Source: Octopus sinensis (taxonomy: Eukaryota). Taken from it: a DNA stretch of 13,445 nucleotides. Each line of letters starts with the position of its first letter. The first letter of the stretch is position 1. The position numbers and the translations under genes are program-made. The notes below the pieces were generated by a model. It saw nothing but the letters and a program-made list of their open reading frames with translations, was not told the origin of the DNA and ran no database searches. The stretch spans positions 1-13,445 of the forward strand of contig NW_021826158.1 in the NCBI RefSeq assembly GCF_006345805.1, in the 5' to 3' direction. Shown piece after piece: positions 1 through 6,585 of the stretch.

Positions 1-404
1 CCTTGGCTATGTGGTATGGTTTGTTGTGATGCTCTTATTTTCACTGTATGGAAAGTGTTTTACGCAGGATGTGTGCAGTGCCTAGTAGTGCTATTTTCCG
101 TATGTTATATATATTTGTTAGCCCGGGTGTTTTTGTTATGTATTTGTCTGAATATTTTTTTATCATGCCTAATGCGCCTACTATGATAGGAATTGTTTCT
201 GTTTTTAGACTCCACATTCGAGTTTCTTCTATTTCTAGGTCTTTGTATTTTGAAAATTTCTCCATTTCTTTTAGAGACACGGTGTCATCTGCTAGTATTG
301 ATACATCAATTAGAAAGCAATTTTTCTTCATGATCTCTGACAACTATATCTGGCCTATTGGCCTTAATTTCTCTATCTGTGTGTATTGGCATATCCCAGA
401 GTAT
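1..404 (-). mobile_element. 5'-truncated R4/Dong-like (RLE-clade) non-LTR retrotransposon fragment: C-terminal restriction-like endonuclease, frameshifted; 3' UTR runs off the window
   Basis: Minus strand reads ILWDMPIHTDREIKANRPDIVVRDHEEK, then after a frameshift near 320 CFLIDVSI..KEMEKFSKYKDLEIE..W..IPIIVGALG..stop at 41-43. These are the RPD / D / K..KY motifs of RLE domains. The 5' end abuts a (TAT)n run at 403-424. Confidence 0.88.
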
Positions 405-4140: not shown

Positions 4141-4143
4141 ATA

Positions 4144-5169
4144 CAGTTGCGGCCAAAATGTTCAGAACGGCATTGTTTTCGTCAGAAGAGTAGATATAAG
4201 TTTTTATCAAAGTTGTGTTATATTCTATAATTTTCACAGACAATAAATACGTTATGAATTATTATTGTCTGAAATTTTGGTGTAATTTGAGAGGATAATA
4301 CAAAAGTTATGGATGATTTAGTGATTTACTGCAAAACCTATGGCGACTAAAATGATCAGAACGGTTGAAAAAAATAACAAAATAATCAAAAATGACAGAG
4401 AATACTGGAATTATTTAATATTTAGTGTGAAGCCCTTTAGCTTCAATCACACTTTGACATCTTCGACTGCATGAGGAAACTAAATTTTCAATTTCCTGCT
4501 GGGTGATCTTATTCCATTCTTCCTGAAGGGCTTTCCATAATTGCTCGGTTGTTTTAGGATTTCTGGCTTTCGAACGTTCTCCTAGAATATTCCACACATT
4601 TTCAATAGGATTAAGATCTGGGCTTTGAGCAGACCAATCCATAACAATAATCTTTTCAGCCTTGAGAAGGTTCATGACCACCTTAGCCTTGTGACATGGG
4701 GCATTGTTCTGCATAAATATGGGTGATCACTTAGTTGAATTTCTCAGCACAGGCAAGACATGATCTTTTACAAGTTGTTTATAAACTCCTGCATTTACCT
4801 TTCCATGTAATCGCACCAAAGGGCCCACACCATCTCCAGATATCATCCCCCAAACCATGACACTTCCTCCACCGAATTTAACACTAGTCTTAAGGCATTT
4901 AGGCGACAATTTTTCACCTACTTTTCGACAAACGTACATTTTCCCATCTGAGCCAAATAACATAAACTTAGATTCACCACTGAAATGTACCGTTTGCCAT
5001 TTTTCTTGAGACCACAACACATGTTCGGTTGCAAAGATAAGACAACAATAACAATTAATATTGTATTTATTGTGTGTGAAAATTATAGAAAATAAAACAA
5101 CTTTGATAAAAACTTATACCTACTTTTCTGACGAAAACAATGCCGTTCTGAACATTTTGGCCGCAACTG
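4144..5169 (-). mobile_element. Tc1-family DNA transposon (DD34E, IR/DR type), internally deleted and non-autonomous
   Basis: Termini CAGTTGCGGCCAAAATGTTCAGAACGGC (from 4144) and its reverse complement (ending 5169). TA TSDs at 4142-4143 and 5170-5171. Inverted homology of ~130 bp (4144-4270 / 5040-5169). Transposase remnant inside. Confidence 0.95.
4415..5030 (-). pseudogene. Tc1 transposase catalytic domain, inactivated
   Basis: VHFSGESKF (D1 to G), GGGSVMVWG, in-frame TGA at 4727-4729, MQNNAPCH (D2 to N), QSPDLNPIENVW. 34 residues separate the D2 position and E. The N-terminal HTH region is deleted. Confidence 0.93.
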
Positions 5170-5231
5170 TACATACAAATTTCGCTGCGAATGATTTTGT
5201 TAAGTGGTGTCGAGTTTTACAATCCTGTAAA

Positions 5232-5432
5232 TAATAATCATGGCACTTTTTTACAAGCGTAAAGCTTATAGGGGTCACCGTGCAAACGACTAAGGAAAAT
5301 AGTCTAATAATGGAGCATATAAACCCCTCGACAGAAAAAAAAGTAGGCTTTGCTGTACGCGTGGTATTCGAACCCACATCTCTTTACAAAAGCAACTACG
5401 AACCGCTTAACAAAATCATTCGTACCGAAATT
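5232..5432 (-). mobile_element. tRNA-derived SINE-like repeat, copy 1
   Basis: Minus-strand B-box-like GTGGGTTCGAATACCAC followed by aaagcctacT-run; clearly homologous, in inverted orientation, to ~5640-5790. Confidence 0.55.
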
Positions 5433-5542: not shown

Positions 5543-5611
5543 TTATCTATCTCTTTACAAAAGCAACTACGAACTAATGTAGTTCTTAAATATTTCAGAA
5601 AGGAACAGGCT

Positions 5612-5790
5612 GGTTCGCTGAGGTAATGGGTAACACAGTCGCGTTAAGAAAGGGATGTCGGTTCGAGTCCCACGGGTACGGGAAAGCCTACTTTTTTCTG
5701 TCGTGAGGGTTTATATACCCTTTTATTAGACTATTTTCCTTAGACATTTGCTTGGTGATCGCTATAAACTTGTAAAAAGAGACCATTATT
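5612..5790 (+). mobile_element. tRNA-derived SINE-like repeat, copy 2
   Basis: A-box-like TGAGGTAATGG at 5619-5629; B box GGTTCGAGTCC at 5660-5670 in a T-arm-like stem; T-run from 5692; 3' body shared with copy 1. Confidence 0.6.
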
Positions 5791-5792
5791 TT

Positions 5793-5827
<35 letters not shown>

Positions 5828-5834
<7 letters not shown>

Positions 5835-6500
5835 TCGCCATACTAATATGGCATTCTTATAAAAATAAGAATAAAGCTGTCCGCTTATTAGCTCCATGAG
5901 GCCATCGCCTTAAGTAGCTATTTGATACACAACTGTATCCATATAACCTTCGAACAAGGGAGGTCAGTCGCTCCACACTACTTGATCGACAGCTACAGAC
6001 GCGTTTCGGGGTATTGCCCCTTTTCAATGTAGCGTAGTCAGACCAGTAGGTGTCGCTTCCGACAATCTCTGTTCGAAGGTTTTATTTACCTAGTTTCAGT
6101 GGAATGCATCCACTTGTTTTCAATAATAGAAATATTAAAATTACTAAGTCTCTCTAAAAGAGATCACGGCAGCGTTCCTGGAAAATAATAGTTATCGCCA
6201 TACTAATATGGCATTCTTATAAAAATAAGAATAAAGCTGTCCGCTTATTAGCTCCATGAGGCCATCGCCTTAAGTTAGCTATTTGATACACAAACTGTAT
6301 CCATATAACCTTCGAACAAGGTTATATGGATACAGTTTGTGTATCAAATAGCTAACTTAAGGCGATGGCCTCATGGAGCTAATAAGCGGACAGCTTTATT
6401 CTTATTTTTATAAGAATGCCATATTAGTATGGCGATAACTATTATTTTCCGGGAACGCTGCCGTTGTTCTCTTTTAGAGAGACTTAGTAATTTTAATATT

Positions 6501-6503
<3 letters not shown>
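5828..6503 (-). mobile_element. Young Penelope-like/retrozyme-like non-coding element: ~1.4 tandem copies of a 360-bp unit plus a fold-back inversion
   Basis: Direct repeat 5828-5959 / 6188-6321 (period 360); palindrome 6128-6312 / 6318-6503; hammerhead at 5992-6033 on the minus strand; flanked by (TA)n and (TC)n(TA)n. Confidence 0.8.
5992..6033 (-). ncRNA. Minimal type I hammerhead ribozyme, U3-A8 core variant
   Basis: Minus strand: GCTACA-TTGAAAA-GGGG-caata-CCCC-GAAA-CGCG-TC-TGTAGC. Perfect 6-bp stem I, 4-bp stem II, palindromic ACGCGT stem III, GUC site. Confidence 0.85.

Positions 6504-6585
<82 letters not shown>

Follow-up and report, generated by a model that had tools for sequence, protein, structure and literature searches.

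A dispersed 362-nt hammerhead repeat of Octopus sinensis with two fixed-end arms, likely a non-autonomous retrozyme inserted by a Penelope-like enzyme

The 13,445-nt stretch of the Octopus sinensis genome analysed here (the window; contig NW_021826158.1 of assembly GCF_006345805.1) contains a short, partly repeated sequence with a hammerhead ribozyme motif, which raises the question of what kind of element this is and how its copies are made. A reading made from the sequence alone had offered two answers, reverse transcription around a circular retrozyme RNA or the partial-tandem formation of the pLTR of a Penelope-like element (PLE). They proved not to be alternatives, since a retrozyme-type unit carries here the insertion signature of a PLE. 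We are confident that the sequence belongs to a dispersed 362-nt hammerhead repeat inserted as two fixed-end arms, and that it is likely a non-autonomous non-LTR retrozyme pasted into the genome by the reverse transcriptase (RT) and GIY-YIG endonuclease of a PLE.

The whole insertion occupies 5828-6503 and consists of two head-to-head arms between two microsatellites, a (TA)n target on the left (5793..5830) and a (CT)n(TA)n(TG)n stretch on the right (6504..6585), both without strand. Arm 1 (5828..6321, sense on the minus strand) is 494 nt or 1.37 units long and has a subfamily A haplotype; its 3' end at 5828 is a fixed end, termed X, and its 5' end forms the apex. Units are numbered along the minus strand, with position 1 at 6187 and position 360 at 5828. 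Alignment confirmed that 5828-5959 recurs at 6188-6321, the two copies differing by no more than two 1-nt gaps. Compared with the rest of the family, it is the 5828-5959 copy that has lost a base at each gap, so that the true unit is 362 nt and not the 360 bp first proposed; the deletions may be assembly errors. The extent first given to the element, 5828..6321, overlooked an inverted arm of 186 nt (arm 2, 6318..6503, plus strand) that directly adjoins the repeat. The greater-than-unit copy is real, and such arms are common in the family (45 of 120), but it makes up just one of the insertion's two arms. Arm 2 has no hammerhead; it passes X, enters the tail, where its haplotype differs from that of arm 1, and stops 5 nt before a second fixed end, Y. 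An internal copy of the 65-nt tail between X and Y, of haplotype A, lies in arm 1 (6123..6187, minus strand). The arms have a 4-nt overlap in common at the apex (6318..6321, without strand), a microhomology. Directly 5' of X is a small hairpin (5837..5852, minus strand) inside a 24-nt stretch that is identical across five aligned reference units, and this region is likely part of the RT start signal. The GC content of the region is 33-37%, and the unit is free of ORFs as originally stated, its longest stop-free stretch being 74 codons in the sense and 51 in the antisense direction. Within the window no PLE protein gave a significant match.

Other repeats surround the insertion. The stretch 4142-5171 is a Tc1/mariner-type DNA transposon: its terminal inverted repeats are 127 nt long (93%), it is flanked by TA at either end, and its minus strand holds what is left of a disrupted DDE_3 transposase. 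At about 5600-5790 and at 5340-5400, next to the (TA)n target, tRNA-like box motifs suggest SINE copies; ARAGORN found no tRNA in these two stretches, part of which is repetitive in other sequencing runs. A 100-codon frame at 41-343 (minus strand) has no Pfam match and resembles the restriction-like endonuclease found at the C-terminus of a LINE.

The single hammerhead that had been noted is one in total for the 1.37-unit arm (minus strand, 6033-5992) and the sole match to a permissive pattern in the window. It is a type I hammerhead (5992..6033) with a 6-bp stem I, a 4-bp stem II and GAAA; its core, UUGAAAA, is the U3-A8 variant, its stem III is the palindrome ACGCGU, and the cut predicted by pattern match falls after GUC, between 5998 and 5997 on the minus strand. 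An Rfam scan of the window gave no hammerhead match at E≤1. The microRNA-precursor matches that it gave (best at 6256-6374) were rejected, as they lay below the cut-offs and reflect the palindrome and the TA repeats. We aligned the ribozyme in 95 copies from 82 loci (one row is misaligned). Each core position is kept in 90-94 of the 95 copies, core position 7 is free (A68/T14/C8/G5), and pairs in stems I and II switch among A-U, G-U and G-C; stem III is ACGCGU in most copies and of the ACAUGU type in 19, both forms being self-complementary. RNAalifold folded nine copies from three subfamilies into one long rod closed by a 12-13-bp helix; 3 of its 43 pairs show changes in both partners. The unit fold has a z of -6.9, in the circular ensemble the pair probabilities of stems I and II are 0.94-1.0, and a 6-bp intermolecular duplex is predicted to be possible for stem III. 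A 12-bp inverted repeat had been proposed to bracket the ribozyme and close a larger structure. It lies at 5945..5956 (3' strand of the helix) and 6070..6081 (5' strand), both in minus-strand sense, has a counterpart in 5 of 2000 shuffles, and closes the ribozyme domain with a pairing probability of 0.81-1.0, being kept in the consensus fold of the nine copies. Together, conservation and covariation are what one would expect if the hammerhead is under selection and depends on dimers, its cleavage being a prediction. A U3-A8 covariant core is described for PLE hammerheads of Schistosoma (PMC4209133), and eight of nine Xenopus retrozyme dimers are reported to have failed to cleave in vitro (10.64898/2026.07.22.740005).

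The family is large. A search of the 2.72-Gb genome with the unit returned 1,811 candidates, of which 40 were scored, and among the 150 matches listed the top 53 full units are 96-100% identical. The terminal 24-mer at X has 2,980 exact matches in the genome, against 0 for the reversed control; because match counts include internal tandem units, we estimate the number of loci to be nearer 1,800. With no ORF in the unit, these copies support the earlier description of a protein-free, multicopy, hammerhead-bearing retroelement. Subfamilies stand near 98%, 95% and 84% identity, and two loci (L017 and L028) have a recombinant haplotype, with a B-type tail and an A-type ribozyme region. At least two consecutive complete hammerhead units occur at L002, L005, L075 and other loci, the window locus having one hammerhead, and arrays of about six units exist. 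The unit is also present in sequencing-run contigs of other organisms. A weak 54-nt likeness to unit positions 261-314 (E 7e-4) lies in another TA-flanked repeat (L201:284-335), perhaps a related family.

The layout of the insertions was followed at 24 distinct top-hit loci and at 58 distinct loci taken in order along one contig (C1), after 18 overlapping or duplicate loci had been dropped and the last listed C1 site left out. The arms point outward from the apex, and their 3' ends are fixed at two sites 65 nt apart, X at position 360 and Y at position 65 of the next unit. The circularly permuted start points for which the sequence-only reading had suggested a check are thus not seen at the 3' ends, because arms end at X or Y. 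The 82 loci comprise 45 with X+Y, one with X+X, two with Y plus another end, 24 with one arm and 10 that are complex, so that X+Y accounts for 45 of the 48 simple two-arm loci and Y+Y for none. Either arm can be the longer one. Microhomology of at least 2 nt was found at 33 of 46 simple apices, compared with 17% by chance, and the two arm 5' ends were no more than 15 nt apart in 5 of 46, compared with 4.3 expected at random; arm lengths are independent of each other. The 5' ends cluster at 227-241 (12 of 82 arms in the positional sample and 7 of 38 top-hit arms), at the 3' strand of the closing helix or slightly beyond it, and both arm 5' ends of the window locus (229 and 238) fall within this cluster. 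The targets are flanked by (TA)n or (TTA)n; 12-nt flanking repeats containing G or C were seen at six loci, and at most loci pure TA hides duplications. Two loci have unrelated inserts of 162 and 136 nt between their arms (L046:1067-1228 and L092:4049-4184), possibly captured templates.

An inverted arm, a one-sided tail and AT-rich targets are known features of PLEs (PMC8557442, PMC3846280). An anole PLE, as described in PMC11167929, cuts and extends both strands in vitro, and its tail corresponds to the spacing of two RT start sites inside the RNA. Endonuclease-bearing PLEs (PMC3846280, PMC8557442, PMC11167929) are like the 362-nt family in combining partial tandem and inverted 5'-truncated copies, a tail confined to one end, targets that are AT-rich or (TA)n, a short target duplication and a hammerhead upstream of two RT start sites. 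They differ from it in that the 362-nt unit has no ORF, is self-contained and repeats on itself, and in a tail of 30-40 nt, compared with 65 nt here. Metazoan non-LTR retrozymes, as presented in PMC7229834 and 10.64898/2026.07.22.740005, have a non-coding, low-GC unit of 150-450 nt found as monomers to multimers, with one type I hammerhead per unit and a short palindromic stem III, all of which the present family shares. In contrast, it has a U3-A8 core, mostly two-armed inverted insertions and two fixed ends, we found no homology of its unit to a known pLTR, and its ribozyme activity and circles are predicted only. The size and GC of the unit (362 nt, 33-37%) lie within the range used for non-LTR retrozymes (150-450 nt, GC below 45%), and at the level of sequence it is a new family of this known class. 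Such elements have recently been argued to be non-autonomous PLE derivatives (10.64898/2026.07.22.740005). Mobilization by a PLE is indicated by the inverted 5'-truncated arm, the one-end tail (45 of 48) and the AT-rich or microsatellite target. The plant LTR retrozymes are defined by a type III hammerhead in LTRs and a 4-bp duplication, whereas the present hammerhead is of type I and the duplications are of about 12 nt. The minimal hammerheads of the Schistosoma PLE Cercyon (PMC4209133) have the same core covariation and a predicted need for dimers, with a long stem II and a short stem I in place of the canonical 6 and 4 bp (and 2-bp stem III) of the 362-nt unit. Non-autonomous elements of Chlamys such as MRC1 are likewise non-autonomous PLEs with pLTRs and head-to-tail copies, but their 3' sequence is common with autonomous partners and their clade is described, in PMC8557442, as being without canonical hammerheads. 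The literature searched, with Repbase and subscription journals outside its scope, contained no paper on the 362-nt family or on mixed-template two-ended priming by PLEs.

Which enzyme could have pasted the unit? The genome search for GIY-YIG elements gave 5,029 candidates, of which 150 were scored, and among them is one PLE family with ORFs of 780-781 aa encoding RT and GIY-YIG with a CX4CX2C linker, a mark of the Neptune/Nematis type (PMC8557442). Its 3' region carries a UUGAUAA-core (U3-A8) hammerhead with ACAUGU, as in subfamily C of the 362-nt unit, and has two 3' ends, both in (TA)n and separated by about 30 nt, one of which ends in CTATTAT like Y. At the 50 PLE loci compared, out of the 5,029 candidates, ribozyme core, stem III and this 7-nt end motif are what one PLE family shares with the unit; the unit has no sequence homology to any PLE pLTR among these loci, some of which overlap. 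What matched there was an ordinary copy nearby, in two overlapping alignments, and, weakly over 54 nt, another repeat. As there is no longer homology, the Neptune/Nematis-type PLE is a candidate partner only, and its tail is about 30 nt long against 65 nt in the 362-nt unit. This family (L209:2532-6000, L206, L210-L213) is young and autonomous: its 780-781-aa ORFs are intact and overlap an upstream frame that reaches 479 codons, its hammerhead is of the U3-A8 kind, and its 3' ends are fixed at two sites. In other RT/GIY-YIG families (L207, L215, L216 and L217; 775 aa and others) the patterns used here detected no hammerhead. Against pasting by a PLE speak the tail of 65 nt, compared with 30-40 nt in the literature, the missing pLTR homology at the 50 PLE loci, the 24 one-armed and 10 complex loci of 82 that do not fit the two-arm layout and, at the window locus, arm 2 falling 5 nt short of Y and a search for a target-site duplication that found none.

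A circular RNA template is plausible. Arm 1 of the window locus crosses the cut site once, and therefore its template was uncut, re-ligated or jumped; 1,246 exact copies are intact across this site (162 A-type and 1,084 B-type). Rare-allele events numbered 272 in 126 loci, with 247 confined to one unit; at five loci every unit of both arms carried the rare allele, and at L167 the five units of one arm all did. Units of subfamily B diverge by 0.010 within an insertion and by 0.020 between loci, whereas those of subfamily A are no closer within an arm (0.028, 10 pairs) than between loci (0.026). The rare-allele and subfamily B patterns favour repeated copying of one template, and would come equally from a circle or from a homogeneous source array. 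The same element and enzyme may instead have used a linear template, either incompletely cleaved multimers of genomic arrays or end-to-end jumps from monomer to monomer, with no circle involved. This explanation, which concerns the template step only, is a serious contender, to which we give somewhat less than an even chance. It would account for the 5' ends found at the cut site (unit 189-192) in 6 of 38 top-hit arms (p 4e-6 compared with uniform), as a linear 5' end would give, and unprocessed RNA is the main in vitro substrate of the anole PLE (PMC11167929). In the positional sample, however, only 2 of 82 arms start there (p 0.23). Genome-wide, the patterns scored as truncations were 19 of 29 at 191 and 4 of 4 at 190, compared with 12 of 20 at 197, 3 of 12 at 196 and 7 of 25 at 173; after L106 and L232 had been reclassified as point changes, 22 truncations at 190-191 stood against 14 at a matched control site (about p 0.12, duplicates included). 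Several cut-site junctions are explained by stem I complementarity. A 5'-end hotspot at the cut site was thus not clearly upheld genome-wide, and we keep it only as a hint for subfamily A. The rare alleles running through all units at five loci and L167, and the closeness of B units within an insertion, also weigh against a linear template. A fixed internal start with 5' truncation only shortens arrays, yet arrays of about six units exist; therefore some re-expansion would be needed, for which jumps would also serve. Contigs of runs presumed to be RNA contain the unit, and one loops back 362 nt, as a tandem also would, so that these contigs lack the power to separate circle from tandem or to reveal strand and ends.

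Another explanation concerns the inverted arm, which might be an assembly artefact or have formed by fold-back, when a single nucleic acid primed itself at the CCTT/AAGG mini-hairpin. The arms of the window locus do meet 9 nt apart at a small hairpin, and self-priming has been proposed for PLE palindromes (PMC3846280). The arms differ, however, at three tail positions, all of them polymorphic in the family, and each version matches an existing haplotype (51 and 18 occurrences in the loci examined, overlapping loci not collapsed). Pre-existing haplotypes that differ between the arms speak for separate primings on two RNAs rather than for fold-back. A fold-back copy is moreover not required to end at the fixed site Y, as the second arm does, and across loci the 5' ends of the two arms are independent and either arm may be the longer. 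Fold-back is thus largely refuted for the family as a whole, and at the window locus, even together with an artefact, for which contigs of four other runs that do not span the locus gave neither support nor contradiction at the apex, it is very unlikely. At the window locus, two separate RNA molecules probably served as templates for the two cDNAs; a gene conversion after insertion may also have produced the two haplotypes. Two different templates are the exception, as arms usually match in subfamily: in 81 rows the pairs were A/A in 10, B/B in 40 and A with B in 3, the rest being untyped or mixed, and of the three A-with-B rows one is two adjacent insertions and one rests on a single site.

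The copies could also be no more than what 5' truncation leaves of a coding Penelope element, its ordinary pLTR ends, an explanation with still less to commend it. The tail, the inverted arm and the U3-A8 hammerhead are pLTR features of PLEs (PMC4209133, PMC8557442, PMC3846280), and our inspection covered 220 loci, some overlapping, of roughly 1,800. Nevertheless, the unit closes head-to-tail on itself without an ORF, and autonomous PLEs have an RT and GIY-YIG ORF between pLTRs; no ORF-joined copy was found among these 220 loci, so the unit is not seen to be only the terminus of a coding Penelope, which the sequence-only reading had asked to be checked. PLE protein matches occurred in only 8 of the 220, and the five inspected (L018, L067, L089, L095 and L041) are independent insertions, each bounded by ends of its own, or, at L041, a rearranged locus with an antisense PLE fragment. 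Flank-against-flank comparison showed no shared extension, the flanks being locus-specific or microsatellite. Satellite-like amplification of a dead pLTR at the DNA level by unequal crossover, proposed for multimers (10.64898/2026.07.22.740005), is hardly credible, given that the copies are short and scattered, end at fixed sites, are flanked by duplications and carry a ribozyme under selection.

For the retrozyme pasted by a PLE we propose the following course. The unit would be transcribed as tandem RNA that cleaves itself as a dimer through the palindromic stem III, and the cleaved RNA would probably be ligated to a 362-nt circle. A PLE protein would cut both strands of an AT-rich target, and each target 3'-OH would prime a cDNA at an internal site of the RNA, X for one of them and Y for the other. 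Both cDNAs would extend, often past the ribozyme and beyond one unit and often stopping near the helix that closes the ribozyme domain, and would be joined through a few complementary bases. We put forward tentatively, as somewhat short of an even bet, that the family records how Penelope enzymes build inverted-plus-tail insertions, with both strands priming at two fixed sites on rolling 362-nt circles and with two RNAs feeding the window locus, contrary to self-priming; the 5' ends of the youngest subfamily may show a footprint of cleavage in vivo. The 362-nt family ties animal retrozymes to Penelope enzymes by the shape of their insertions, beyond sequence likeness. As a clean substrate that lacks an ORF and is represented by well over a thousand insertions, it pinpoints the places in the RNA (X, Y, the cut site and the stall helix) at which the formation of PLE inverted repeats and tails, and the question of a circular template, may be addressed.
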